Part shown: piece by piece, positions 1 through 46,691 of the stretch
Position numbering within the stretch: position 1 is the stretch's first letter
How the letters are laid out: each line of letters begins with the position of its first letter
IMG/VR virus record: IMGVR_UViG_3300045988_173330
DNA from: a virus
Reading direction: 5' to 3' (one strand)
Length of the DNA stretch: 46,691 nucleotides
Notes under the pieces: generated by a model
The model's input: the letters and a program-made list of their open reading frames with translations, nothing else
Databases searched by the model: none
What the model was told of the DNA's origin: nothing
Translations under genes and position numbers: made by a program

Positions 1-55
1 TTTTAAGGGGGCAGAATCGCTTGGTTTTAGGGGGCAGCTTACACTGGATTTTCCA
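1..55. repeat. Left terminal inverted repeat (55 bp), made of two tandem units at 1-24 and 25-47
   Basis: ttttaagggggcagaatcgcttggttttagggggcagcttacactggattttcca is the exact reverse complement of 46637-46691. Identity stops at position 56 (a, versus c at 46636). Units: TTTTAAGGGGGCAGAATCGCTTGG and TTTTAGGGGGCAGCTTACACTGG. Confidence 0.97.
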
Positions 56-79
56 ATTTGTATCATCAATCATTTAGTT

Positions 80-87
80 TATCTTTG
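80..87 (+). promoter_or_regulatory. Bacteroidota-type -7 promoter box TATCTTTG for the left-arm operon
   Basis: Exact TAnnTTTG match about 115 nt upstream of the ATG at 202. Confidence 0.5.
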
Positions 88-116
88 CTACGTGATTGAA
101 TGATGATGTAAATATA

Positions 117-202
117 CTAGAAGTTCTATATCTAGCATAGAATTTCTAGTTAATTATTGTAAATATGCTAGATTTTCTATAATCAAACCTAGAATATCTA
201 TA
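117..202 (+). promoter_or_regulatory. Operator-like array: four copies of CTAGAnnTTCTAT(A), three direct and one inverted
   Basis: CTAGAAGTTCTATA 117-130; ATAGAATTTCTAG 137-149 (inverted); CTAGATTTTCTATA 168-181; CTAGAATATCTATA 189-202, overlapping the start codon of the CI-like gene. Confidence 0.6.
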
Positions 203-903
203 TGACTTTAAAAGAAAGAATGTTCTATCTAATTGAAAAAGAAGGACTTAATCCAAATCAATTTTATACCATCTCTGGATTAGGAAATGGGTACTTAAAT
301 AATGTAGGTGAAAGTTTCAGAAAGCCAACGATAGAAAAGATAAAAAAAAGCTTCCCGCATTGGAATATGGACTGGATTCTTTATGAAAAAGGAGAGCCTA
401 TTTCCAATATATCTAAAGAAAATATAGAAATTCTAGAAGCCATACCATTAAACCAAAACTATATTATAAACGTACCATTAGTAAATCAATACGCACAAGC
501 AGGTTATTTATGCGGATTTCAAGATGCTGCATATATAGCTACACTACCTACTATACCTTTTATAATAGACCATGAAGCTAAAGGAAACTATGTAGCATTT
601 GAAGTAAGAGGTGACAGTATGAATGATGGAACTGAAGAGAGTTACCTTGAAGGAGACAGACTTCTTTGTAGAGAAATAGCTCCATATCTGTGGGCAGAGT
701 CTAAATTGCATATCCGGAAATGGGATTTCGTTATTGTACATGAAGACGGAATTTTGGTAAAACGAATAATAGACCATAATGTAGAAAATCATACTATTAC
801 AATACACTCTTTGAACGATATGTATCCTGACAGAGTTATTGATTTGGCAGAAGTTAGGCAAATCTTCAATGTGATAGAATTGCAAAGGCCAAGAAGAAGA
901 TAG
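202..903 (+). CDS. CI-type repressor: phage-CI HTH + S24 (LexA-like) self-cleaving peptidase
   Basis: 233 aa. The N-terminal HTH ends ...FPHWNMDWILYEKGEP, as in phage CI repressor HTH domains. The C-terminal has a Ser/Lys dyad context (VRGDSMNDG ... DGILVKRII). Confidence 0.85.
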   Translation: MTLKERMFYLIEKEGLNPNQFYTISGLGNGYLNNVGESFRKPTIEKIKKSFPHWNMDWILYEKGEPISNISKENIEILEAIPLNQNYIINVPLVNQYAQAGYLCGFQDAAYIATLPTIPFIIDHEAKGNYVAFEVRGDSMNDGTEESYLEGDRLLCREIAPYLWAESKLHIRKWDFVIVHEDGILVKRIIDHNVENHTITIHSLNDMYPDRVIDLAEVRQIFNVIELQRPRRR

Positions 904-941
904 TTTAAAAGTTTAATATACAAACTATTAAAACTAATACT

Positions 942-2420
942 ATGAAATTCAATCAATACACATGGAACCTATATAAGCAATCTTCTGACGGACAAAAAGC
1001 TATTAAGGAGTTTGAGGAACCATCCAACAATGATACGATGATGGATTTGGTTTTCAAATACAATCCAAGAATGAAGTTATGGTTTAATGATGACAAATCC
1101 AGACTATCCATATCAAACATCAGTGAAAGCTTATGGTGTTACAATATCTGCGAATTTCCAGATGAGGAAAGACCTAATACACTGGAAGAAGCGAAAGAAA
1201 AGTATGAAGATGTTCTTTTTCGTGGGTTAACAGACAATGATGAAGTACTAATACCAGTCAACGACTATGAAATGATGTTGAATAGCATAACATGGACATC
1301 ATTCTTATTATATTATTTTGCACCAGAGTTTTTCTTCCCTAATATATTTATTTACCGTTTCTTTGATTTACATAAGATAGCAGATATGTTTGAGATAGAT
1401 TTACCGTCTATCCCAAAGAAATCAAACTATAAGGCGAGATGTATGTACTACTGGAGTTTATGCGAAGTGTTTTATCGATTTAGGGCAGAGAATGAGCTTT
1501 CTCCAGCAGAATTATGCGCTTTCCTATATGACTTTGCACCCAACTTCATGCCCCAAAAAGAAGCAGACGTTCCACAGCCAACACAAGCATGGTGTATCGG
1601 TGGATTGATTGATAAAAATGAATTATTTAGAACTACTTTTTGGCAAGCGAATCCAGAAACAAAGAAAGGCGATATTCTCATTCATTACGAAACCGCTCCA
1701 ATTAGTGCAATTACCCGAGTATGGATAGCTCAAACAGATGGAGTGATAGACCCATTCTTTCATTACTATGGAAACACCTACATAGGGAATAAAATTGATA
1801 TTCCACATATCAGCCTGAAAGAACTCCGAGAAGATAAATACTTCTCCAATCATCCGCTTGTTCGCAAGAACTTTCAAGGGGTAAGCGGATGGTCAATGAG
1901 TGGCGCGGATTATTCGGAACTCCTGCGAATGATAAAGGCAAAAGGATTTGACACTGATGTTCTGCCCAAACTATACGTTCCGACATTACCTAAAGGAATA
2001 GTTATAGAGTATGAACATGATGTGGAGCAACTGTTATTAGAGCCGTTATTAAACTCTATGGGATGGTATGAAAAGAAAGACTTCATCCGGCAGTTACCTA
2101 TTCAAGCAGGGAGAGGACATCGGGTGTTCCCGGATTACGCCTTGCACTATGACAACAAACCGGACGAAGAAAAAGCGAAAGTTCTGATTGAAGCCAAACT
2201 TCACATGAAGAACAACCAAGACATAGAAGCAGCCTTCTTGCAAGCACGTTCATACGCTCGGCTATTAGGTTCTTCTGCTATTGTCTTATGTGACAAGGAC
2301 TATTTACTTGTATATGAGAAGAAAGATAACTTCGACCGAGACAGTTATAAGAAATACTACTGGGGAGAACTTGAAAATCCCGATGTGTTCAACGAATTAA
2401 AGAACAAACTAAATATCTAA
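942..2420 (+). CDS. Putative modification-sensing nuclease: EVE/PUA-like central domain + C-terminal PD-(D/E)xK (HsdR-N/Mrr-like) domain
   Basis: 492 aa. FWQANPETKKGDILIHYETAPISAITRVWIAQTDG...HISLKELRED resembles EVE-domain topology (inference). FPDYALHYD...KVLIEAKLH gives a D...ExK nuclease motif. Confidence 0.55.
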   Translation: MKFNQYTWNLYKQSSDGQKAIKEFEEPSNNDTMMDLVFKYNPRMKLWFNDDKSRLSISNISESLWCYNICEFPDEERPNTLEEAKEKYEDVLFRGLTDNDEVLIPVNDYEMMLNSITWTSFLLYYFAPEFFFPNIFIYRFFDLHKIADMFEIDLPSIPKKSNYKARCMYYWSLCEVFYRFRAENELSPAELCAFLYDFAPNFMPQKEADVPQPTQAWCIGGLIDKNELFRTTFWQANPETKKGDILIHYETAPISAITRVWIAQTDGVIDPFFHYYGNTYIGNKIDIPHISLKELREDKYFSNHPLVRKNFQGVSGWSMSGADYSELLRMIKAKGFDTDVLPKLYVPTLPKGIVIEYEHDVEQLLLEPLLNSMGWYEKKDFIRQLPIQAGRGHRVFPDYALHYDNKPDEEKAKVLIEAKLHMKNNQDIEAAFLQARSYARLLGSSAIVLCDKDYLLVYEKKDNFDRDSYKKYYWGELENPDVFNELKNKLNI

Positions 2421-2424
2421 GATT

Positions 2425-3390
2425 ATGATAATCACAACTACTAATAATATAGAAAATTATTCAATAAAACGATACTTAGGTGTAGTAAATGCGAATATAG
2501 TTATTGGAGCAAATTTTTTCTCTGATTTTGCAGCATCACTAACAGATGTTTTTGGCGGACGCTCTAATACCTATCAAAACAAGCTAAACACCATATACAA
2601 GGAAGTAATGGCTGAATTAAAAGCAAAAGCCAAATCTTTTCAGGCTGATGCTATTGTTGGATTACATATAGACTTTGACGAAGTTTCCGGTGGAGGAAAA
2701 TCCATGTTTATGGTATCTGCATCTGGAACTGCTGTTATGATAGAAAATAACTTTGAAGATAGATACTTCATGTACAAAGCTCTCAGTGACATTCATGACT
2801 ATTGGAAAAAAGGATTTCTATCAGAAGAAGAATACAATTATGAAAAAGCAAGGATTATAGAAAAGTATAATAGCGCAATTTCGGCAGAGGTTACAGTAGT
2901 CAAAGAAACTAAAGAATACGAAGCAAAAAAGTTAAGAGAGCAAGAAGAACAAGAAGCTTATACTAAGAAAGTTCTTGAAGAAAAGCTAATCATAGCAAAG
3001 AAGGAATTAGAAAACAGATGCCCATGTTCTGAAGATACCATAAAAGAAACTACACATCTTCAAATACAAGCATCAGACTACAATAATATTCCATATAATA
3101 CTGACGATTCTATGGAAAGTATAATCGCAAAGTTTATTCGGTTAAACAGAATACCTGAAGCTTGCAAATATTACATGGATGAAACCGGATTGAACGATAC
3201 AGATGCTATTGAGTTTGTAGTTGATACTTATAAGAAAATAGACCAGATAGACAAAGATGCTTTTGAGAGGCTTCTTAATAAATTGAGGGTATTAAAAAAT
3301 AAAGGGTTTATTGAGCAAGCAATTAATGAATATCAAAAATTTACCCTATCAGAAAAAAATGCGGCAGAAACATTTATTAATGATTTATAA
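2425..3390 (+). CDS. YbjQ/UPF0145-domain protein with SHOCT-like motif and helical C-terminal repeats
   Basis: 321 aa. The first ~105 aa (GGRSNTYQNKL...ADAIVGLHIDFDEV...SASGTAV) match the YbjQ family pattern. KKGFLSEEEYNYEKARIIEKY is SHOCT-like, followed by coiled coil and two L7/L12-CTD-like helical units. Confidence 0.7.
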   Translation: MIITTTNNIENYSIKRYLGVVNANIVIGANFFSDFAASLTDVFGGRSNTYQNKLNTIYKEVMAELKAKAKSFQADAIVGLHIDFDEVSGGGKSMFMVSASGTAVMIENNFEDRYFMYKALSDIHDYWKKGFLSEEEYNYEKARIIEKYNSAISAEVTVVKETKEYEAKKLREQEEQEAYTKKVLEEKLIIAKKELENRCPCSEDTIKETTHLQIQASDYNNIPYNTDDSMESIIAKFIRLNRIPEACKYYMDETGLNDTDAIEFVVDTYKKIDQIDKDAFERLLNKLRVLKNKGFIEQAINEYQKFTLSEKNAAETFINDL

Positions 3391-3402
3391 AATAGACTGA
3401 TT

Positions 3403-3681
3403 ATGGTTGACTTTCTAACCATCATACTCCTAATATTCGGAGTACTGCAAATCATCCTCTTCTTCAAGGTATGGGGAATGACGAATGACATCAAAGAGAT
3501 AAGGAACAAGTACCTTAAAGACGAGGACGAGAAACGAAGACAAAAAGCAGAATACGACCCAACCCCAAAATCAGCGGTGGGGTTAAAACAACAATATAGC
3601 CGGAATTATTCCCCGGCTTTTTCTTTCCCTATTCGCAAGTTGTGCAAATGTTGTGCAGATAGCATAAAAAGAAAATGCTAA
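3403..3681 (+). CDS. Small N-terminally membrane-anchored protein (3' end uncertain)
   Basis: 92 aa. A hydrophobic helix FLTIILLIFGVLQIILFFKVW is followed by a charged helix. The last ~25 codons run through an intrinsic-terminator-like hairpin at 3598-3623, so the C-terminus may not be genuine. Confidence 0.45.
   Translation: MVDFLTIILLIFGVLQIILFFKVWGMTNDIKEIRNKYLKDEDEKRRQKAEYDPTPKSAVGLKQQYSRNYSPAFSFPIRKLCKCCADSIKRKC
3598..3623 (+). terminator. Intrinsic-terminator-like hairpin AGCCGG-loop-CCGGCT followed by TTTTTC
   Basis: 6-bp GC-rich stem plus a T-run, located inside the 3' part of ORF 3403-3681. Confidence 0.4.
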
Positions 3682-3710
3682 CAAGTTGTCAATGAACCTA
3701 TTAGCATTTT
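3672..3710. terminator. Bidirectional terminator-like hairpin between convergent genes
   Basis: AAAATGCTAA (3672-3681) pairs perfectly with TTAGCATTTT (3701-3710). A/T runs lie on both sides. It sits between the + operon end and the - gene ending at 3802. Confidence 0.55.
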
Positions 3711-3801
3711 TCCTTGTGATTCCGTTGCCACTACTTTTCATACTGGCTGATAGTCAATTATATATCTTTTGTTACCTAAATTACTTTTAGGAAAGGAGGT
3801 T

Positions 3802-3999
3802 TTAATCAACACCTGGCATTGAACAATACACATAGTAATCTTCCTCAATACAAGTTATTTTAACGTCAAATCCATCAGGGTCAATTCCGTCTGTGCTGAT
3901 GCAAATAGTATCTCCTACTTTCCCTAATAATTCTTTTATTTCCACCTCAAAACTGAACTGCCCAGCTTCAACAATATAGAGATACGCTTTTTTATCCAT
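3802..3999 (-). CDS. Hypothetical 65-aa protein, coupled downstream of the XRE repressor
   Basis: The ORF starts 2 nt after the stop of 4001-4381 on the same strand. It is acidic and has no recognisable motif. Confidence 0.45.
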   Translation of the reverse strand: MDKKAYLYIVEAGQFSFEVEIKELLGKVGDTICISTDGIDPDGFDVKITCIEEDYYVYCSMPGVD

Positions 4000-4000
4000 A

Positions 4001-4381
4001 TTACTTCTGCTTTTGGATTAATATTTGAATTGTTCTTTCTTTCTCAGTTATCACTCTTTCTTTTTCCTCCAATAGAGCGTTGAGATGCTCTATCTCTTTG
4101 CGACACTCGCTTAAAGTTATATCTCCAGAGATTTTATTACCATTGCCCTTAACTTGATGACCTATATTAATTCCAGAAGAGTTTATATCTCTATCAAAAA
4201 AATAATCTATTGGTACATTAAAATAATCTGCTATAATTTCCAGGTTGTCGGCACCAGGAATCGAAGTGTTATTAAGCCAAACATATAAGTTTGATTTAGA
4301 TATACTTGTGTCTTTCAAAAACTGTGCTTGACTGATCTTTCTATCTTCAAATAATCTTCTTATTTTATCAGGATTAAACAT
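4001..4381 (-). CDS. XRE-family HTH repressor with C-terminal coiled coil (immunity-switch candidate)
   Basis: 126 aa. ISQAQFLKDTSISKSNLYVWLNNTSIPGADNLEIIADYFNVPIDYFF is a classic Cro/CI-type HTH. It is divergent from the early operon. Confidence 0.8.
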   Translation of the reverse strand: MFNPDKIRRLFEDRKISQAQFLKDTSISKSNLYVWLNNTSIPGADNLEIIADYFNVPIDYFFDRDINSSGINIGHQVKGNGNKISGDITLSECRKEIEHLNALLEEKERVITEKERTIQILIQKQK

Positions 4382-4512
4382 GTTATACTATTTATACTAG
4401 ATTTAAATAATAATATAAGATTAAAATAATAGGATTAATATTTTGATATTAGACTATTATTTTAAACCTTTGCGTTATAAATATAATAATAACAATCGTA
4501 ATATTTAAGATT
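4382..4512. promoter_or_regulatory. AT-rich divergent promoter/operator region between the XRE repressor and the early operon
   Basis: 131-bp intergenic spacer with short repeats (TATACTA x2, GATTAA x2, TTAATAT/ATATTA inverted). No exact TAnnTTTG box seen. Confidence 0.4.
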
Positions 4513-4713
4513 ATGGAAGAGAAAAAGCAAAAAATGGTACCCAAGTACCATTACGACCAGATGGAGAAAAGCACGAGACTGAGGCTCCGTGATGAGTTCC
4601 TAAGAAGAAGCGGTATGTCATTGATTACATTCTACGACAAGTTAAGAAAAGACTCCTTCAAACCTTTGGAAAGAGAACTATATGAGAACATTTTCATAAT
4701 TCAACAAAATTAA
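4513..4713 (+). CDS. Hypothetical early protein (Cro/Xis-sized)
   Basis: 66-aa basic ORF, first gene of the rightward early operon. Confidence 0.5.
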   Translation: MEEKKQKMVPKYHYDQMEKSTRLRLRDEFLRRSGMSLITFYDKLRKDSFKPLERELYENIFIIQQN

Positions 4714-4727
4714 GAACCAATCAAATT

Positions 4728-4988
4728 ATGGAGGAATTTAAAAGAATACCCTTCGGTGGTAATCCCTATGCGGATTTTGAGTTTTTCAAGGTAGAATTAA
4801 AAGTCTGCGATGTGAAATACACTCCAGAGCAGATTTATGCACACTTTGAATTCACAAGTGGGTACAAAGTAGATGTACAAGGTACATTTTATCCCTCACT
4901 AATTCGCAAAGCTATAGTTCAAGTTCGCGAAATGGAGCAAGCACATATTACAAACTCATCACGTTGTGAAATTCATGCCGATAACTAA
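4728..4988 (+). CDS. Hypothetical early protein
   Basis: 86-aa ORF in the operon series. Confidence 0.5.
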   Translation: MEEFKRIPFGGNPYADFEFFKVELKVCDVKYTPEQIYAHFEFTSGYKVDVQGTFYPSLIRKAIVQVREMEQAHITNSSRCEIHADN

Positions 4989-5532
4989 CATCGAGTTCTA
5001 CAACACCCCCGAAGGTGATGTGATGATTAAAGAACTTGGGCATGCGGCAGTTGTGCTTTGTGAGGACAACCGCCCGACCATCGAGTACATGCTTGCTGTC
5101 ATCAGGGACAGATACCCGAAAGCACATGCCAGGTTAATGCAACTTTACTCCAGTAGTACAATGAATAGGTGGCATTATGAATTCCGGGTAGTTCACCGCT
5201 TCATCCGCTGCAACTTCGGCGAGTATGACCAATACAACCTTGACATCAATAAGGATGGACAATTCGTATTCGAGGAGGTAAAGTGCCCACTACGAGGTGA
5301 GTGCGAACATGAGGGAGTGATTTGTCGCCCGGAACTTGACACGGCACTAACCGCCCGTGAGATGAATGTTTTCAGACTCATCGCTTCCAATTGCCAGACG
5401 GATGATATTGCAGCGGAACTGCACATATCACCTTATACGGTGAACCGCCATCGGGAGAATATCAAAGCGAAAATCAAGGTTCATAATGTGAGTGAGATGA
5501 TTTCTTACTGGCATCAGAACCAGATGAAATGA
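4966..5532 (+). CDS. LuxR/GerE-type HTH transcription regulator with Cys/His-rich linker
   Basis: 188 aa. The C-terminal REMNVFRLIASNCQTDDIAAELHISPYTVNRHRENIKAKIKV is a GerE-type HTH. It is preceded by VKCPLRGECEHEGVIC. Confidence 0.75.
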   Translation: MKFMPITNIEFYNTPEGDVMIKELGHAAVVLCEDNRPTIEYMLAVIRDRYPKAHARLMQLYSSSTMNRWHYEFRVVHRFIRCNFGEYDQYNLDINKDGQFVFEEVKCPLRGECEHEGVICRPELDTALTAREMNVFRLIASNCQTDDIAAELHISPYTVNRHRENIKAKIKVHNVSEMISYWHQNQMK

Positions 5533-6327: not shown

Positions 6328-9300
6328 ATGTACTTTACTCAAGACGATATAAAACGAATCAAGGAGGCTTCCAAAGGCAGGCTCCTTGATGTTATCGGTG
6401 ACTTCCACGAACTACGCAAACGGGGGGCCGAATATAAATGCGAATGCCCTAAATGCCATGGACAAGAGAAGTTACATATCTCTCCGGCCAAACAGATTTT
6501 CAAATGCTTCAGTTGCCCGGATATAAAAGGCAAAGAACCGCTGGACTATCTGCAGAGGGCAGAAGACATGCAATTCCTGGAGGCATGCGATTACCTGGCG
6601 CGCAAATTCAATGTATTGCTGGACCCCAAACCGGAGAAGAAACCTTCCAAACCCACAAAAATGAAGAAACGGAGCAAGGAGGCCAAGGGAGAAAGTGTCG
6701 ATACATTCTGCGCCCGTATGCTTGCTGACAGCGGTCTGACCTATCAGGACGTGACGGCACATATCTTCAAGAAGGGAGATACACAGAGCATTTTCGAGGC
6801 GAAGACTTTCCGTCCGGGAACCGTTGACGAATACGGCAATATCGTTGACGGGGATGATGTCATCATCGAATATTACGACCTGGACGGCATGCCGGTCACT
6901 TATACCCGTAAGCTGCCGGGGCGTGGCAAGCAGGAACTCAAAGTGTATTACCGCGTCCGCTGGCAATTCCCGGAAGAACACCGGGACAAGGAAGGGAAAC
7001 CGTTCAAGTACAAGTCTCCTGCCGGCAGCGGTACGCCCATATACATCCCGGAACGCATGAGGCAGATGTACAAGAGGAAAGAGCAGTTCCCAAGACTCTA
7101 CATCCAGGAAGGAGAAAAGAAAGCGGAAAAGGCATGCAAGCACGGTATCCCCTCCATAGCGGTCAGCGGCATCCAGAACCTGGGACAGAAAGGGGCGTTG
7201 CCGGAGGATCTTGTCAAGATAATCACTGTCTGCGGAGTCAAGGAAGTGGCTTTCATTTTTGATGCGGACTGGAATGACCTCTCCCGTAACATTAAGTTCA
7301 ATGCTCCAGTTGATTTTCGACCACGCAGTTTCTTCTCCGCTGCCCGAAACTTCAAGGAATATATGCGTATGCTGAAGAACCGCGGTATCATGGTGGAAAT
7401 ATTCATTGGCCACATCAACAAGAACGATGAAGGCGACAAGGGAGTGGACGACCTCTTGGCCGATAAGCTGGCCGGTCATGAAGAGGAACTGGCCGAAGAC
7501 CTGGAATTTGCCTGCAACGAGAAGTCCGGAATGGGAAAGTATGTGGAAGTGTTCAAAATCACCACATGGAATGACCAGAAACTACGGGAATTATGGAACC
7601 TGCACAGCCATGAAAAATTTGCCGAGCAGCACCGCGAGGTCCTGCAGGAGCTTCCGGAATTTATCTTTGGTCGCTATGCCTGGAAGTTTGACGAGAACGG
7701 CAAATTGGTATCTGCCCTACCCTATGATGAGGATGAGAAGTTCTGGAATGAGGACTACAAGGAAACGAACGGTAACAGGGTGCCGGTGTTTGAATATGAT
7801 TATGTGGCCGCCAAGACCTTTTTCCAGAACCGGGGTATCGGCCGTTACCGCCTGCTCGATACCAAACTCTGGACATATATCCATCTGGAGCCGCCGGTAG
7901 TCCGCACCATTGACGTGGAAGACGCACGCGATTTCATGTTCGCCTTTGCCGAACAGAACTGCAGCCGTTTCGTCAACAACCAGCTACTCAAGGGAGGCTC
8001 GCAATACGTCGGACCGTTCCAGATGTCAAGGCTCGCCTTCATCCAACCGAACTTCATCTCCCCGTCCCGTGACGAGCAATATTTCTATTTCCGTGACCGT
8101 TGCTGGCACATCACCCAGCATGAGGTCAAGGAAGTGGGATATGAAAGCATCACCCACCAGATATGGGATGAACAACGGAAGAACACCGATGCCAGGTACC
8201 TCGGCCACCCCCTCATTATATTCAGGGAGAAGGACGGCAGGTATGACTACGAACTCTCTCCGGAAGGCAGGAAATGCCACTATCTCCAGTTCCTTATCAA
8301 TACCAGCAATTTCACCTGGAGAAAGAGGCCGGAAGAGATTGAGGAGAGTGAAATCTTTGAAAACAATCTTCATCTGCTTTCTAAGATGTGCGCCATCGGC
8401 TACATGCTGATGGAATGCAAGGACGCGAACGTGACACGTGCCGTTATCGGCATGGACGGCAAGCAGTCGGAAGTCGGTGACAGCAACGGACGCAGCGGCA
8501 AGTCACTTGTCGGTGAGCTGATGCGCCAGGTTGTCGATACAGTCTATATATCCGGGAAACGGACGGACATCTTCAACGACAGCTTTATCTGGAATGACAT
8601 CGACGAACGGACACGCCTGGTATTCATCGACGATGTCATGCTGAACTTCAACTTCGAGTTTCTGTTCCCCAATCTCACCGGAGACTGGACTGTGAACAAA
8701 AAGGGGGGCGCACGTATCACTTATCCGTTCGCCAAATCACCCAAAGTATATATCCCCACCAATCATGCCATCCGCGGTACCGGTTCCAGCTATACCGACA
8801 GGCAATGGCTGATAGCCTTCTCCGATTTTTATAATGACAAGCACAAGCCCATGGATGATTTCGGGGTACTGTTCTTTTCCGAATGGGACTTCACCCAGTG
8901 GAACCTGACCTGGAACATGCTGGCCAACTGCATACAGCTCTATCTTAAATTCGGGGTCGTGCAGGCACCGGGCGAACGCCTGCAGCAGCGTAAGCTAAGG
9001 CAGGAGATTGGCGAGACCATCATATCCTGGGCGGACGAATACTTCAGCAGCGAGGAGCACTGTCGCCGTACCCCACGCAAGGAGATTTATGACAATTTCT
9101 GCAACTATGATCCGCAGCAACGCAAGTACATCACTTCCACCGCCTTCAAGGACAAGATAAAAAAATACTGCGAATGGAAGGGCTGGGTGTTCAACCCACA
9201 CAAGTATGACGCCAAAAGCGGTCTGCCTCTCTTCCTGGACAAGGACGGGAAACCGGTTATAGATGACAAGTCCGGAGGAGTGGAGTATTTCACCATAGGC

Positions 9301-9381
9301 AAGACAGCCGGAGAGCAGACACCCCAGAGTGACCCGCATGAACTACCGGTTGGCAATCCGGACAACAAACTTGCATTCTGA
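6328..9381 (+). CDS. Primase-helicase: zf-CHC2 + Toprim + P4/D5-type P-loop NTPase
   Basis: 1017 aa. Zinc finger CECPKCHGQEKLHISPAKQIFKCFSC; Toprim-like IQEGEKKAEKACKHGIPSIAVSG...FIFDADWND; Walker A NGRSGKSLVGE and Walker B LVFIDDV. Confidence 0.9.
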   Translation: MYFTQDDIKRIKEASKGRLLDVIGDFHELRKRGAEYKCECPKCHGQEKLHISPAKQIFKCFSCPDIKGKEPLDYLQRAEDMQFLEACDYLARKFNVLLDPKPEKKPSKPTKMKKRSKEAKGESVDTFCARMLADSGLTYQDVTAHIFKKGDTQSIFEAKTFRPGTVDEYGNIVDGDDVIIEYYDLDGMPVTYTRKLPGRGKQELKVYYRVRWQFPEEHRDKEGKPFKYKSPAGSGTPIYIPERMRQMYKRKEQFPRLYIQEGEKKAEKACKHGIPSIAVSGIQNLGQKGALPEDLVKIITVCGVKEVAFIFDADWNDLSRNIKFNAPVDFRPRSFFSAARNFKEYMRMLKNRGIMVEIFIGHINKNDEGDKGVDDLLADKLAGHEEELAEDLEFACNEKSGMGKYVEVFKITTWNDQKLRELWNLHSHEKFAEQHREVLQELPEFIFGRYAWKFDENGKLVSALPYDEDEKFWNEDYKETNGNRVPVFEYDYVAAKTFFQNRGIGRYRLLDTKLWTYIHLEPPVVRTIDVEDARDFMFAFAEQNCSRFVNNQLLKGGSQYVGPFQMSRLAFIQPNFISPSRDEQYFYFRDRCWHITQHEVKEVGYESITHQIWDEQRKNTDARYLGHPLIIFREKDGRYDYELSPEGRKCHYLQFLINTSNFTWRKRPEEIEESEIFENNLHLLSKMCAIGYMLMECKDANVTRAVIGMDGKQSEVGDSNGRSGKSLVGELMRQVVDTVYISGKRTDIFNDSFIWNDIDERTRLVFIDDVMLNFNFEFLFPNLTGDWTVNKKGGARITYPFAKSPKVYIPTNHAIRGTGSSYTDRQWLIAFSDFYNDKHKPMDDFGVLFFSEWDFTQWNLTWNMLANCIQLYLKFGVVQAPGERLQQRKLRQEIGETIISWADEYFSSEEHCRRTPRKEIYDNFCNYDPQQRKYITSTAFKDKIKKYCEWKGWVFNPHKYDAKSGLPLFLDKDGKPVIDDKSGGVEYFTIGKTAGEQTPQSDPHELPVGNPDNKLAF

Positions 9382-42278: not shown

Positions 42279-42411
42279 ATAAAATCACTATTTTAGCAAC
42301 GCCAAAAAATGAATTAAATGAATCCTTTTCCATAGTGTAACCCATAAGATTGGGTTCAGGTTTATTCATTCCTGTAGGCGCACTATAGTGAAGGATTCGC
42401 CATTTAATATT

Positions 42412-43815
42412 ATGACAAACAAAAAATACAAATCTATCAGTATTTCTAATTTAATTATAAATCCAGATAATGATCGTTTTGAGTCTGTTGAGAATGAAAA
42501 GCAGGCTATAGACATAATGCTAACAAAATTAGGAGACAAAATTTATTATATTGCGATACATATTTTAGAGAATGGGTTGTCTCCCAAGCCATTTTATGTT
42601 ATGCCATCAAAGAAATCTAACAAGAAATTTCTTGTAAAGGAAGGAAACAGAAGAACCACAGCATTAAAATTGATGGCTAACCCTAAGTTAATTGATTCTA
42701 AAAAACATGCTTCATTAAAGAATCGTTTTTTTAAGCTGCATGAAAGATTTATGGAAACTCCGATTAGAAAAATAATGTGCTATATTTATGATGATGTAGA
42801 AGAGGCAGATAAATGGGTTCGATTAGAACATACAGGAGAACAGAATGGAGTTGGTATAGTTGAGTGGAAACCAGAGCAAGTACAGAGATTTGATATAAAA
42901 CATGGAAAAAATAAGTCTGTAGAAATACAAGCTATTGATTTCATACGAACATCTCCTTTCGTACAAGAAGAAGTAAAGAGGGCTTCCGAAAACATTAAAC
43001 TCACAAATTTTGCTCGTTTATTAGGAGATAAAAGTGTTCGGGAAATTTTGGGTTTAAAGTATATAAATTCTAAATTAAGTTCTAATCTTGAAGAAGAAGA
43101 AATAGCTAAGGCCTTAGGGCAAATTATTTTAGATTTGTCTGATAAAGATTTTAAGGTTAGTTCTATATATAATGCCAAGCAAAGAAAAGATTATATTCAA
43201 GGCTTAGGAGAAAAACTGCCTGATAAAAATAAGACAATAGGAGAAGTTTGGAGGTTGGATAATCCATTAGAACAAATTCCTAATTTGGAAGAAGAAGATA
43301 ATACAGCAAAGAATGAGGGAAGTGATTTGCATTCTAAGGGACATTTAAAGAAGTCTATTCCGACCCAACGTAAAACTCTTATACCCAATAATTGTATTAT
43401 TAGGATTTCCAATCCAAAAGCAAATAAAATTTATGATGAATTGAAAAAAATAGATGTTCGAAGTTTTGTTAATTGTGCAGCTGTCACTTTGAGAGTTTTT
43501 TTAGAATTAAGTGTAGATACTTTCATTGAAAAAAAAGGATTACTTAAAGAAGGAGAAATTTCGGCTTCCAATTCTTCAAGAAGTTTGTATCAGAAGGTTA
43601 ATGATGCTAGTCAATACTTATATAAAGAGAAAATTGCAGATGAAACAATATTAAAAGCTGTAAAATTATTAACCAAAGAACGTAATTCTATTTGGGGAGT
43701 GGATACAATGAATGCTTATGTACATAGTAACAAACTTTCCCCTGTGCCAATAGATATTCAAACAACTTGGGATAATATTCAGGATTTTATGGTAATCTTG
43801 GAATATCTTTTTTAG
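42412..43815 (+). CDS. ParB/Srx-fold (ParB-N or DUF262-like) N-terminal domain protein with an unassigned C-terminal domain
   Basis: ATG at 42412 preferred over the GTG at 42388. ISISNLIINPDNDRFE ... VKEGNRRTTALKLM resembles the ParB-N / DGQQR-type motif. About 467 aa. Confidence 0.6.
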   Translation: MTNKKYKSISISNLIINPDNDRFESVENEKQAIDIMLTKLGDKIYYIAIHILENGLSPKPFYVMPSKKSNKKFLVKEGNRRTTALKLMANPKLIDSKKHASLKNRFFKLHERFMETPIRKIMCYIYDDVEEADKWVRLEHTGEQNGVGIVEWKPEQVQRFDIKHGKNKSVEIQAIDFIRTSPFVQEEVKRASENIKLTNFARLLGDKSVREILGLKYINSKLSSNLEEEEIAKALGQIILDLSDKDFKVSSIYNAKQRKDYIQGLGEKLPDKNKTIGEVWRLDNPLEQIPNLEEEDNTAKNEGSDLHSKGHLKKSIPTQRKTLIPNNCIIRISNPKANKIYDELKKIDVRSFVNCAAVTLRVFLELSVDTFIEKKGLLKEGEISASNSSRSLYQKVNDASQYLYKEKIADETILKAVKLLTKERNSIWGVDTMNAYVHSNKLSPVPIDIQTTWDNIQDFMVILEYLF

Positions 43816-43983: not shown

Positions 43984-46599
43984 CTATTTGTTTAGTTTGT
44001 TTAATCGCATTACAATTGAAGTTTGACTTCTACCCATTTTGTTTGCAATATATTTGACACTCTTACCTTCATTGTGCAGTTTCAATAAAAATTGGTCTGC
44101 ACTTCTTGTCCATCTTTTATTGGCGTTAGGGTGCTTTACATAGCTTTCTTCTGACACCTTTTCGGGGTGCAAGAATTCATCCACAAATACAGACGGGAAA
44201 CGCTTATCGTATAATACAAGCGTTTTTACCTTAGCCCTTGTTATTGCAACATAGAATAATCTTCTTTCTTCTCCGTATGGGAATTGGTCGCTCTTAGTGA
44301 GCACATAGTTAAGCACAGGGTCGTTACTCACCTGTGATGGGAAACCGTATGTATCTTTATTGCATTGTAAGAGTATTACATAATCCGCTTCAAGACCTTT
44401 TGACTTATGTACGGTTAAAAACTCTATTTTTCGTCCTCCTATCACATAGTAGAATCTATTACCCTCTTTAATTGATTGGTACATAAAAGAGAGGTAGTAA
44501 TCATCAAAAGAGTAACGCCCCAATAGGAATATTGATTTATCCGATGGAATAGAAGCCACAAGTTGCCCTATCGTATTGCAGTAATCTCGTCTATCATAAG
44601 TATAGAATTCCAACTCGGTTCTCATTTCTGAGCTGAACGAATGGATACTCTTTTGTATTTGGGCTTTATTGCGTTGTATAAAGTTCGACGATAAAGAAAC
44701 CAAAGGCTCTCCAAACCTGTATGTAGTTTCAATCTTGTTTATCTCCGTTGCTCCAAAATATTCGGGGAATTGATTGAATAGAGCCATATCACTTCCCGAA
44801 AAACGATAAATAGACTGCCAATCATCACCCACACAATACAACTTTGCAGGAGGATTACCCTCTCGCAATACTTTCAAGAAGTTGTAACGGTCAACAGAAA
44901 TATCTTGAAACTCATCCACTATGATATAATCATATTCAACAGGGTGTGAAGTACGACATATCTCAGTGGCTTGAAGAATAGCATCGGTAAAATCAATTTG
45001 GTTACTATCGCTTAACGCATTTATGTAGCGTTCATATACAGGTTGAAATATATTCTTGATGATAAACACACTTCGTTCATCATCTGCATTTTTGGCTTGT
45101 TTCAAAACCTCTTTAACTGATTTACAACTTGATTTTACCAATGTAACGAAAGTAACAACAAGTCGTATAAACGCCTTTTCCTGCTTGCTGCCTTTGGGTA
45201 GTACTAAATCGTATAACTCCTCATCGGTCTTTTCTTGAATTGGTACACCTGCTTCAGCTAATAGTTTACGAAGTTTATCCCTAATATCAGAATAATGGAA
45301 ATCTGCACTTGATGTCACTAAAAGTTGTGTACCAAATTTCTCGTGAGCCGCTTTTTTCCAAGTTATACCATCATTGTATTTCTGATAGGCTTCTTCGTAG
45401 GTTATACCCTTGTCTTTTGCGAACCAAGCAGGAACAAGTCCGTGTTCATCAACTCCGAAATGTTCAAGATAGATGCGTTTGGTTACTCCTTCTTGCTTAA
45501 AATATATTGAGAAGTCGGGACGATATTGTGAGTGCATCTCATCTGCTAATTGATGTTCGTATGGTTCTTCATATCTGAATTTCACTCCCAGCGAGGACAA
45601 AGCAAAACATATTTTTTGTTCTTGTTCACTTCTCACATATATGGCTCTGCCGTCCATATCGGGGAACATCGCCTTTAGCTGCACATTCTTTTGCTCTGAT
45701 AATTGCTCTCGTCTTTCATTCTTGCGTTGTTCCCAATCGGCTTCATTCGTTTGGTAATCAATGAAGTATTCCACTATACTTTTCTTGAAAGACGATTTAT
45801 CTAATAATTTGTGATATATATCAACAAACAATGAATCTGTATTGTCGCAAATCGATGGTTTTGTGCCTGTTGTTTTGCCTATAATATCAATGGCTAACTT
45901 ATGGAATGTGTAACCTTTCAATCCATTGGTCGCCATTCTTTCGGTTAGTTCGGCTGCTGCTTTGTTCGTGTAACTGATTAGTAATATTTTATGAGGTGCA
46001 ATGCCTTTTACTTCCGTCAAGTATTTGACTTTTCCCACAATAGAAGAGGTCTTTCCGCTACCTGCACTACTAACGACCAAGCAATTATCTTCCTCTGAAA
46101 CGATTGAACGTCTTTGTTGCATGTCTAATGGATATTTTAGACAATGGTCGAAAAAATCTTTATGAGCGTCAAGCAAAAATGTGATAACGCCCTCATTATG
46201 CTGTTTTACAAGTTTATTGATGGCTCCAAAATCATTGATGAATTTGGAAATGTTTTCAGATGGAGTGATTTTAAAGGCTTCAAGTTTCTTCAAAAGAGAA
46301 TATGCCTCTTGAAAATGTGATTTGTAATGATTTATAAAATCTTGTTCTTGCGTTGCAGAGATTATCTTGCCATAAAAGCCATTGTTCAAGTCGGTAGGAA
46401 TATCTATAAACTCTTTCTCATTGAGAGTAGATAATCTATCTTTTGCTTGCTCATAGTTTGATTTCTCGCTATATGAAGATATCTGACTGAACTTTTCTGA
46501 AAGTGCATTGACTTGTTTTTTTAGGCGTATTCGTACCATTGCCATCACGATAACCGAAATCGCAATTATACAAATCATCATAATAAACAATGGCTGCAT
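43984..46599 (-). CDS. Membrane-anchored SF1 (UvrD/helicase IV-like) helicase with an inserted Vsr/DUF559-like PD-(D/E)xK module and a C-terminal HTH
   Basis: 871 aa. N-terminal TM helix LFIMMICIIAISVIVMAMV. Motif I SSAGSGKTSSIVGKV, motif II IIVDEFQDIS, and late motifs TVHKSKGLEADYV and LFYVAITRAK. Nuclease-like YRPDFSIYF...IYLEHFG. C-terminal WTRSADQFLLKLHNEGKSVKYIANKMGRSQTSIVMRL. Confidence 0.85.
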   Translation of the reverse strand: MQPLFIMMICIIAISVIVMAMVRIRLKKQVNALSEKFSQISSYSEKSNYEQAKDRLSTLNEKEFIDIPTDLNNGFYGKIISATQEQDFINHYKSHFQEAYSLLKKLEAFKITPSENISKFINDFGAINKLVKQHNEGVITFLLDAHKDFFDHCLKYPLDMQQRRSIVSEEDNCLVVSSAGSGKTSSIVGKVKYLTEVKGIAPHKILLISYTNKAAAELTERMATNGLKGYTFHKLAIDIIGKTTGTKPSICDNTDSLFVDIYHKLLDKSSFKKSIVEYFIDYQTNEADWEQRKNERREQLSEQKNVQLKAMFPDMDGRAIYVRSEQEQKICFALSSLGVKFRYEEPYEHQLADEMHSQYRPDFSIYFKQEGVTKRIYLEHFGVDEHGLVPAWFAKDKGITYEEAYQKYNDGITWKKAAHEKFGTQLLVTSSADFHYSDIRDKLRKLLAEAGVPIQEKTDEELYDLVLPKGSKQEKAFIRLVVTFVTLVKSSCKSVKEVLKQAKNADDERSVFIIKNIFQPVYERYINALSDSNQIDFTDAILQATEICRTSHPVEYDYIIVDEFQDISVDRYNFLKVLREGNPPAKLYCVGDDWQSIYRFSGSDMALFNQFPEYFGATEINKIETTYRFGEPLVSLSSNFIQRNKAQIQKSIHSFSSEMRTELEFYTYDRRDYCNTIGQLVASIPSDKSIFLLGRYSFDDYYLSFMYQSIKEGNRFYYVIGGRKIEFLTVHKSKGLEADYVILLQCNKDTYGFPSQVSNDPVLNYVLTKSDQFPYGEERRLFYVAITRAKVKTLVLYDKRFPSVFVDEFLHPEKVSEESYVKHPNANKRWTRSADQFLLKLHNEGKSVKYIANKMGRSQTSIVMRLNKLNK

Positions 46600-46636: not shown

Positions 46637-46691
46637 TGGAAAATCCAGTGTAAGCTGCCCCCTAAAACCAAGCGATTCTGCCCCCTTAAAA
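46637..46691. repeat. Right terminal inverted repeat (55 bp)
   Basis: tggaaaatccagtgtaagctgccccctaaaaccaagcgattctgcccccttaaaa is the exact reverse complement of 1-55. Confidence 0.97.

Follow-up and report, generated by a model that had tools for sequence, protein, structure and literature searches.

Four plus-strand genes stand at one end of a 46,691-nucleotide (nt) stretch of viral DNA, IMG/VR virus record IMGVR_UViG_3300045988_173330, which we analysed at its full length and refer to as the window. They encode an S24 repressor (gene 1), a 492-amino-acid (aa) protein (gene 2), a YbjQ protein (gene 3), and a membrane peptide (gene 4). A preliminary description of this DNA read them as a candidate defence cassette triggered by DNA damage, which raises the question of whether the four genes form one system at all, and what the repressor at their head controls. 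We compared the cassette region, positions 56-3728, with related loci and contigs, given by L-numbers where they need to be told apart. Our analysis favours a Bacteroidales prophage immunity operon in which an EVE nuclease would serve superinfection exclusion, accompanied by independent cargo. We put the probability of this reading at about 0.65.

Gene 2 encodes a predicted reader-nuclease fusion

The gene 2 protein is divided into a helical N-terminal domain (residues ~1-205), an EVE/PUA-like domain (~210-340; nt 1569-1961), and a C-terminal PD-(D/E)xK domain (~355-492; nt 2004-2420). An AlphaFold (AF2) model based on an alignment of 91 sequences reached a predicted local distance difference test (pLDDT) score of 94.2 and a predicted TM-score (pTM) of 0.88. 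A model from a shallow alignment of 24 sequences gave a pLDDT of 64 and was discarded in favour of it. Among the 91 sequences, which extend down to 28% identity, Asp398 is invariant, and Glu417, Lys419, Gln434, and Tyr438 are each at least 90% conserved. These motif residues map to strands 399-404 and 411-418 and to helix 425-442 of the model.

Foldseek searches of the PDB matched the model to the EVE proteins 2gbs, 1zce, 2hd9, and 2g2x, with a probability of 1.0, target TM-scores of 0.58-0.66, and ~140 aligned columns. Further matches included ASCH proteins, the HsdR fragment 3h1t, Cas4 (4r5q), the restriction-fold protein 3ijm, and the nuclease domains of DrdV and BpuSI. Among viral models (BFVD), the best matches were a phage protein with an HsdR-N domain (1.3e-4) and an EVE protein. 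When the 91 family members were compared singly with Pfam, HSDR_N was found in 21 (best 8.9e-6), HSDR_N_2 in 13, and EVE in 4 (best 1.2e-4). PDB sequence searches with gene 2, singly and as a profile, and with the repressor returned nothing useful. Together, the model, the fold matches, and the profile matches bear out the EVE-like and PD-(D/E)xK architecture that had been proposed for this protein.

The family is widespread. Gene 2 gave 823 matches in a 90%-clustered database, forming 567 clusters at 50% identity across Bacteroidota, with the full length kept down to ~28% identity; it also matches phrog_37753, a family of unknown function, over its full length. With reader and nuclease in one protein and no methyltransferase open reading frame (ORF) in positions 1-3728, the modelled architecture is a credible fit to type IV restriction, the predicted activity of the protein. 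We infer that its target is the modified DNA of incoming phages, which it would cut. The preliminary description knew of no named system with this combination of genes; for gene 2 this has to be revised, as EVE-PD(D/E)XK is already listed as a predicted class of type IV restriction (Bell et al. 2020, PMC7641849).

The repressor faces a phage early operon in relatives

Gene 1 matches Peptidase_S24 (PF00717) with E 4.8e-9 and 36.4 bits, against a curated Pfam cut-off of 23.3, over profile positions 1-109 of 116. It also matches phrog_4, 'transcriptional repressor' (6.4e-14). The catalytic pair, Ser139 (in GDSM; nt 616-618) and Lys187 (nt 760-762), is invariant across 15 divergent allele clusters, and the Ala-Gly pair at 99-100 and the Cys-Gly pair at 103-104 are candidate cleavage sites. 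No Pfam helix-turn-helix (HTH) match was found in the window repressor; sister alleles with the same C-terminal domain carry HTH_3. The first gene is therefore a repressor of the self-cleaving S24 type, as had been described.

The closest relatives of the cassette are 99% identical to it over 56-2428 and 3402-3728. In these relatives the repressor faces a minus-strand early operon, with WYL_2 first, followed by AAA_24, ERF or PD-(D/E)xK, and SSB-like genes, and an integrase or tRNA and host DNA follow the cassette. Because of this arrangement in relatives, the repressor appears to be the immunity repressor of its own prophage, as in a classical temperate-phage immunity switch, and not a side regulator of a defence cassette. 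The preliminary description had set the cassette apart from an XRE/early-operon switch at 4.0-4.7 kilobases (kb) and had taken that switch to be the real immunity region. The separation stands; the exclusive role of the XRE region does not, since the cassette repressor appears to be an immunity repressor too.

Gene 2 occupies a cargo position behind the repressor

The pairing of repressor and gene 2 is the only part of the cassette that is conserved as such. We retrieved 80 IMG/VR loci with gene 2 as the query, and in 76 of them a plus-strand gene of ~210-280 aa, read as an HTH-S24 repressor, ends 2-40 nt upstream of gene 2. These upstream genes fall into 16 clusters that share less than 70% identity; the S24-type motif G-x-S-M is present in 15 of these clusters. 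Gene 2 stays 59-99% identical across the same 80 loci.

The other two genes are distributed differently. The YbjQ gene was present in none of the 80 loci. Of the 39 loci whose downstream sequence extends for at least 1.3 kb, 21 have the membrane peptide; its gene lies 8-11 nt behind gene 2 or is separated from it by an insert of 0.3-1.1 kb. These inserts mostly encode lipoproteins; putAbiC (7.9e-21), a non-specific endonuclease (Endonuclease_NS, 3.8e-58), and a DUF2971 protein were also found.

Gene 2 can itself be replaced. In L193 (4234-5764), a PD-T4-6-type Ser/Thr kinase (Pkinase 5e-45; PADLOC 5.7e-41) and a 157-aa protein stand behind the S24 repressor, followed by only the last ~78 codons of gene 2 and then an identical YbjQ gene. 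In L192, an FtsK-gamma/DUF4236 protein takes the place of gene 2. Conversely, gene 2 is found without the repressor in Capnocytophaga, Tenacibaculum, Hallella, Rufibacter, and Saprospiraceae genomes. In two contigs a copy of the insertion sequence (IS) IS21 lies inside gene 2 at window-equivalent position 1734 (L183 352-2105 and L187 884-2637, the same contigs as L093 and L121), and both still have the YbjQ gene and the peptide as well as the adjoining primase phage. The insertions suggest that gene 2 is dispensable for prophage carriage.

The proposal of one four-gene system is not upheld by these co-occurrence data, because the YbjQ gene occurs without gene 2, gene 2 without the repressor, and the peptide alone elsewhere. 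Judged from these gene orders, the position behind the repressor appears to be a cargo hot spot, with gene 2 as its most frequent tenant.

The YbjQ protein is variable cargo and a tentative defence candidate

Gene 3 consists of a YbjQ domain (residues 1-108), a SHOCT-like stretch (~113-150), a charged linker, and a conserved helical C-terminal domain (~206-321). The first domain matches Pfam YbjQ_1 (PF01906) at 3.7e-30 over the full profile (1-103 of 103), and in the PDB the protein matches the pentameric UPF0145 structures 2gtc (1.2e-28), 1y2i, and 1vr4. Of the YbjQ-SHOCT fusion described earlier, the YbjQ part is thus secure. The SHOCT part is unmatched by Pfam in the window protein and matched in 4 of 21 relatives, with a best E of 0.001, and segment 113-150 is conserved. 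The C-terminal domain could be assigned to no family; it may resemble the C-terminal helices of ribosomal L7/L12, as read from alignment A5.

The long YbjQ protein has more than 500 relatives, in several kinds of surroundings. Those at 84% and 53% identity occupy the same slot after a gene-2 homologue, and those at 62% and 55% lie directly behind an S24 repressor without gene 2. Two more distant relatives, at 44% and 47% identity (L201 822-5954 and L230 2630-5972), lie right after a type I restriction-modification HsdS-HsdR pair and near a Schlafen/AlbA_2-HATPase gene, settings that look like defence islands. The long YbjQ protein, which occurs behind S24 repressors with or without the EVE nuclease, and beside restriction and Schlafen genes, might be an unrecognised stand-alone anti-phage or superinfection-exclusion gene of Bacteroidales, a proposal that we regard as tentative. 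A weaker extension of this proposal would have it act jointly with the EVE nuclease and the membrane peptide, as part of a Rex-like abortive response.

Operon layout and the membrane peptide

All four plus-strand ORFs were confirmed (Table 1), with intergenic gaps of 38, 4, and 12 nt and no terminator-like site found between them, in agreement with the tight, co-directional arrangement noted before. The Bacteroides promoter consensus is TTTG (-33) and TAnnTTTG (-7), and the -7 box already pointed out, TATCTTTG, was read in the sequence together with an upstream TTTG. The operator-like array was likewise confirmed as four exact copies of CTAGANNWTCTAT, the last of which directly abuts the start codon of gene 1. 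A fifth exact copy lies at 424-436, and one site with a single mismatch at 46427. These six matches in the whole window, one of them with the mismatch, compare with 1.35 expected, and a count of six was not attained in any of 100 shuffles. The array is also kept in L002, L018, and L045. A leftward -7 box, TAGGTTTG (plus-strand 184-191), was considered as the driver of the lost early operon and is not claimed, as it has no matching -33 element.

Downstream, hairpins after gene 4 agree with the terminator proposed there; its bidirectional character is weakly supported, the T-run of the first hairpin being on the plus strand. The fourth gene does encode a small membrane protein, with a correction to its length. 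A 1-nt deletion after position 3563, relative to four close relatives, extends the window ORF to 92 aa and across the terminator; in the four relatives the ORF encodes 65 aa and stops upstream of the terminator. The 92-aa ORF is thus a frameshifted form of the 65-aa gene. Most of the 233 homologues are 65 aa long, and 92-aa variants recur in other samples.

The same 65-aa peptide is encoded at 4001-4198 in L224-L229 without nuclease or repressor, beside a host locus with an AbgT transporter and a two-component system. Its orientation there is opposite to that in L018, and it may be the remnant of a prophage end.

The G+C content of the cassette region is 32-37%, compared with ~50% for the body of the window. 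A scan of positions 1-5000 matched no RNA family in Rfam, and GenBank phage searches by DNA and by protein returned no named phage relatives.

Table 1. Features at the left end of the window
Feature	Position	Strand	Basis
Outermost 55 nt of an IS21-family terminal inverted repeat	1..55		Mirrored at 46637-46691; assembly boundary
Putative Bacteroides-type promoter: -33 TTTG (57-60), -7 box TATCTTTG (80-87)	57..87	+	Read from sequence
Operator-like array	117..201		Exact CTAGANNWTCTAT at 117-129 (+), 137-149 (-), 168-180 (+), 189-201 (+)
Gene 1, CI/LexA-type S24 self-cleaving repressor, 233 aa	202..903	+	Pfam, PHROG, Ser/Lys pair
Gene 2, 492-aa three-domain protein, predicted modification-dependent (type IV-like) endonuclease	942..2420	+	Alignments, AF2 model, Foldseek, Pfam
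Gene 3, 321-aa YbjQ (UPF0145) protein, variable cargo behind repressor	2425..3390	+	Pfam, PDB matches, contexts
Gene 4, small single-pass membrane peptide, 92 aa here, canonical 65 aa	3403..3681	+	Alignment A3, 233 homologues
Terminator-like hairpin AGCCGG...CCGGCT, then TTTTTC	3598..3618	+	Sequence; conserved in relatives
Second hairpin, long, A+T-rich, just before att core	3672..3710		Hairpin search
Attachment (att) core TGTGATTCCGTTGC, 3' end of tRNA-Arg(TCT)	3715..3728		Five junction contexts share only this core

The cassette is bounded by an insertion sequence and an att core

On the left, homology to L002, L018, and L045 begins at position 56. Inverted copies of window 1-55 enclose IstA and IstB in L086 (8551-11169), where Pfam identifies IstB_IS21 (1.3e-65) and rve plus Mu-transpos_C_2. 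By this comparison, an IS21-family element appears to have taken the place of the divergent early operon found in relatives. The IS21 end sequence occurs in 58 viral contigs, in many of them at the contig end, and the element is very active in these phages. Assemblers also often work with k-mers of 55 nt, and the window is best described as an assembly piece that appears to be bounded by IS copies. Two IS copies are involved, because the flanks of the two IS junctions show no target-site duplication; the same observation rules out a circular genome closed by one IS copy. We also considered a Mu-like transposable phage, given the 55-nt terminal inverted repeats with duplicated TTTTAGGGGGCAG motifs. 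This was rejected, the repeats being IS21 ends and the 1017-aa protein of the window (6328-9381, plus strand) being a primase, with a DnaG zinc ribbon plus DUF3854/Toprim-like regions, and not a transposase.

On the right, homology to the relatives of the cassette prophage stops at 3728. In L018 and L047, the att core continues into tRNA-Arg(TCT) and host genes. Window homology in L151, L189, and L152 sets in at 3707-3715, where the primase phage begins, and L151 has a tyrosine integrase on the other side. The 80 gene-2 contigs and the contigs with the window primase do not overlap, and in several primase-phage contigs the whole cassette or a part of it adjoins the att core. Taken together, these junctions suggest that the cassette is the right-hand, att-proximal end of one prophage (P1) abutting a second, unrelated prophage (P2), and not the left arm of the window phage as first described. 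P2, with the XRE switch at 4.0-4.7 kb, the primase, and the structural genes, fills the rest of the window. Because no sister-type integrase is present anywhere in the window, this primase phage is probably truncated as well, by the right-hand IS.

Several different elements use the 14-nt core TGTGATTCCGTTGC at tRNA-Arg(TCT). As would be expected for an attP arm, the ~80 nt to its right (window 3708-3805) remain ~87% conserved even where the immunity regions of the primase-phage variants differ.

In the right arm of the window, which is low in G+C, a 475-aa protein (42388-43815, plus strand) matches PADLOC PD-Lambda-5_A over its full length (E 1.9e-150), which places a known defence component there. 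Its gene adjoins that of an 871-aa UvrD-type helicase (43984-46599, minus strand; Pfam UvrD-helicase 3.2e-37; PADLOC GajB and RTasHel helicase models, E 1e-36 to 1e-42), which lies directly before the right-hand IS21 end.

A probable prophage immunity operon and its alternatives

These observations can be brought together as follows. An IS21-family element would have inserted just upstream of the operon promoter, leaving the rest of P1 outside the window. Transcription would run from the Bacteroides-type promoter through the four operator repeats, with the CI-like S24 repressor made first and the accessory genes made along with it in the lysogen. The EVE reader and the PD-(D/E)xK cutter would then, most likely, cleave incoming phage DNA carrying a base modification that the host lacks, a type IV-like restriction that would serve superinfection exclusion. 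The YbjQ protein would sit in a swappable slot and the membrane peptide would close the operon, both as independent cargo and not as subunits of one machine.

Several points weigh against this explanation. The whole-chain Foldseek E-values are modest (1.9e-3 and weaker) despite probabilities of ~1, the window protein reaches 18.0 bits against HSDR_N (E 0.0027), below the cut-off of 25.1, and it is unmatched by the Pfam EVE profile at E <= 1. EVE domains can also bind RNA as well as DNA. None of the four cassette proteins matched PADLOC-DB 2.0 at E <= 1. The operators lie downstream of the promoter, so repressor cleavage could raise expression. Gene 2 is near-fixed in this phage lineage rather than a sporadic insert, which would also fit a role in the biology of the phage itself. 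Finally, no tyrosine integrase related to those of the sister prophages was found in the window, and the tandem-prophage reading rests on junction comparisons.

The point about the operators bears on the damage-triggered cassette of the preliminary description, in which a LexA-like repressor silences the effectors until RecA and single-stranded DNA induce its self-cleavage and release them jointly. The S24 Ser/Lys pair is intact, the four operators between the -7 box and the start codon fit negative autoregulation, and the genes are tightly spaced with no internal terminator. This reading is nonetheless improbable because the repressor would head the same transcript. It could then be made only while the operon is active, and effectors co-transcribed with it should already be expressed in the lysogen. 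In addition, the relatives' copies act as immunity repressors facing an early operon, and the genes are not co-conserved, with the YbjQ gene missing from all gene-2 loci, the peptide from many of them, and YbjQ genes without the nuclease and nucleases without the repressor found elsewhere.

The near-fixation of gene 2, which is far more conserved than the repressor beside it, is what would be expected of a core gene whose product serves the phage itself, by DNA processing or degradation at induction or by sensing modification for the lysis-lysogeny decision. We consider this unlikely, since related genes stand alone, away from prophage switch regions, the place of gene 2 is taken in some prophages by the PD-T4-6 kinase, a known defence, or by the FtsK-gamma protein, and two contigs carry IS21 inside the gene with the downstream genes kept. 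The close spacing of nuclease and peptide genes in many loci (8-11 nt), the presence of the peptide in about half of the informative loci, and an order of repressor, large protein, and small membrane protein that mirrors lambda cI-rexA-rexB would suit a Rex-like abortive-infection pair, in which the nuclease-like protein senses and the peptide, possibly with the YbjQ pentamer, kills by membrane collapse. Such a pair is very improbable here: 18 of the 39 informative loci lack the peptide, which is also found alone near the same host locus, the nuclease retains a complete catalytic motif, and neither PHROGs nor Pfam showed any similarity to RexA or RexB.

Significance and comparison with known systems

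Temperate phages of gut Bacteroidales are abundant, and their lysogeny modules and the protection they give to the host are little studied. The slot behind the S24 repressor and before the att site is predictable from sequence alone; defence genes collect in it, and it can be mined for new defence systems. It has yielded two widespread candidates, the EVE-PD-(D/E)xK family and the long YbjQ protein. The main leads from this work are the hot spot, as a place to mine in Bacteroidales prophages, and the YbjQ protein, which may be a new defence gene. If the nuclease is modification-dependent, phages with modified DNA would be a significant pressure in the gut; a defence role for the YbjQ protein, if true, would be the first biological role for the UPF0145 family. 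A window made up of parts of two prophages, meeting at a single tRNA-Arg site and truncated by IS21 copies, would also change how its remainder is read.

The closest textbook analogue is the lambda cI-rexA-rexB operon, which begins with an S24-type immunity repressor, co-transcribes exclusion genes in the lysogen, ends with a membrane protein, and faces the lytic early operon. The likeness is one of operon layout only: an S24 repressor first, a membrane protein last, and an early operon opposite across the operators. Neither sequence nor profile comparison links genes 2-4 to rexA or rexB; in PHROGs and Pfam they fall into unknown-function or unrelated families. Unlike in lambda, the large protein here is predicted to join a nuclease to a modified-base reader, the cargo can be exchanged, and the host is a member of the Bacteroidales, with Bacteroides-type promoter boxes.

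P2/P4-type prophage and satellite hot spots are fixed positions where unrelated defence genes replace one another. The slot described here is comparable, in that it holds a PD-T4-6-type kinase, putAbiC, a non-specific nuclease, lipoproteins, and the YbjQ protein. It differs in lying inside the presumed repressor transcript and by the att site, in Bacteroidales prophages, and in holding mostly uncharacterised cargo.

The N-terminal 108 residues of gene 3 match the full YbjQ/UPF0145 profile (PF01906). Compared with classical YbjQ proteins, which stand alone at ~105 residues, gene 3 adds the SHOCT-like stretch, the charged linker, and a helical domain of ~115 residues, and its family sits in prophage repressor operons and by restriction genes.

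Gene 2, for its part, resembles EVE-nuclease type IV enzymes in combining a PUA-superfamily EVE reader with a nuclease in one polypeptide, with no partner methyltransferase. The EVE-HNH enzymes VcaM4I and TspA15I cut DNA containing 5-hydroxymethylcytosine or 5-methylcytosine (PMC7897488; Lutz et al. 2019, PMC6765204). In contrast to such enzymes, the gene 2 family adds a helical N-terminal domain of ~205 residues, most of its members have an EVE domain so diverged that Pfam does not match it (matched in 4/91), and the nuclease at its C-terminus belongs to the HsdR-N/Mrr type. The family, known here from sequence and model, is fixed in a prophage repressor operon. Gene 2 is thus an uncharacterised, widespread member of an already predicted class, in an operon layout with a textbook analogue, and the cassette as a whole is a credible, fairly ordinary home for anti-phage genes and not a new four-gene system.

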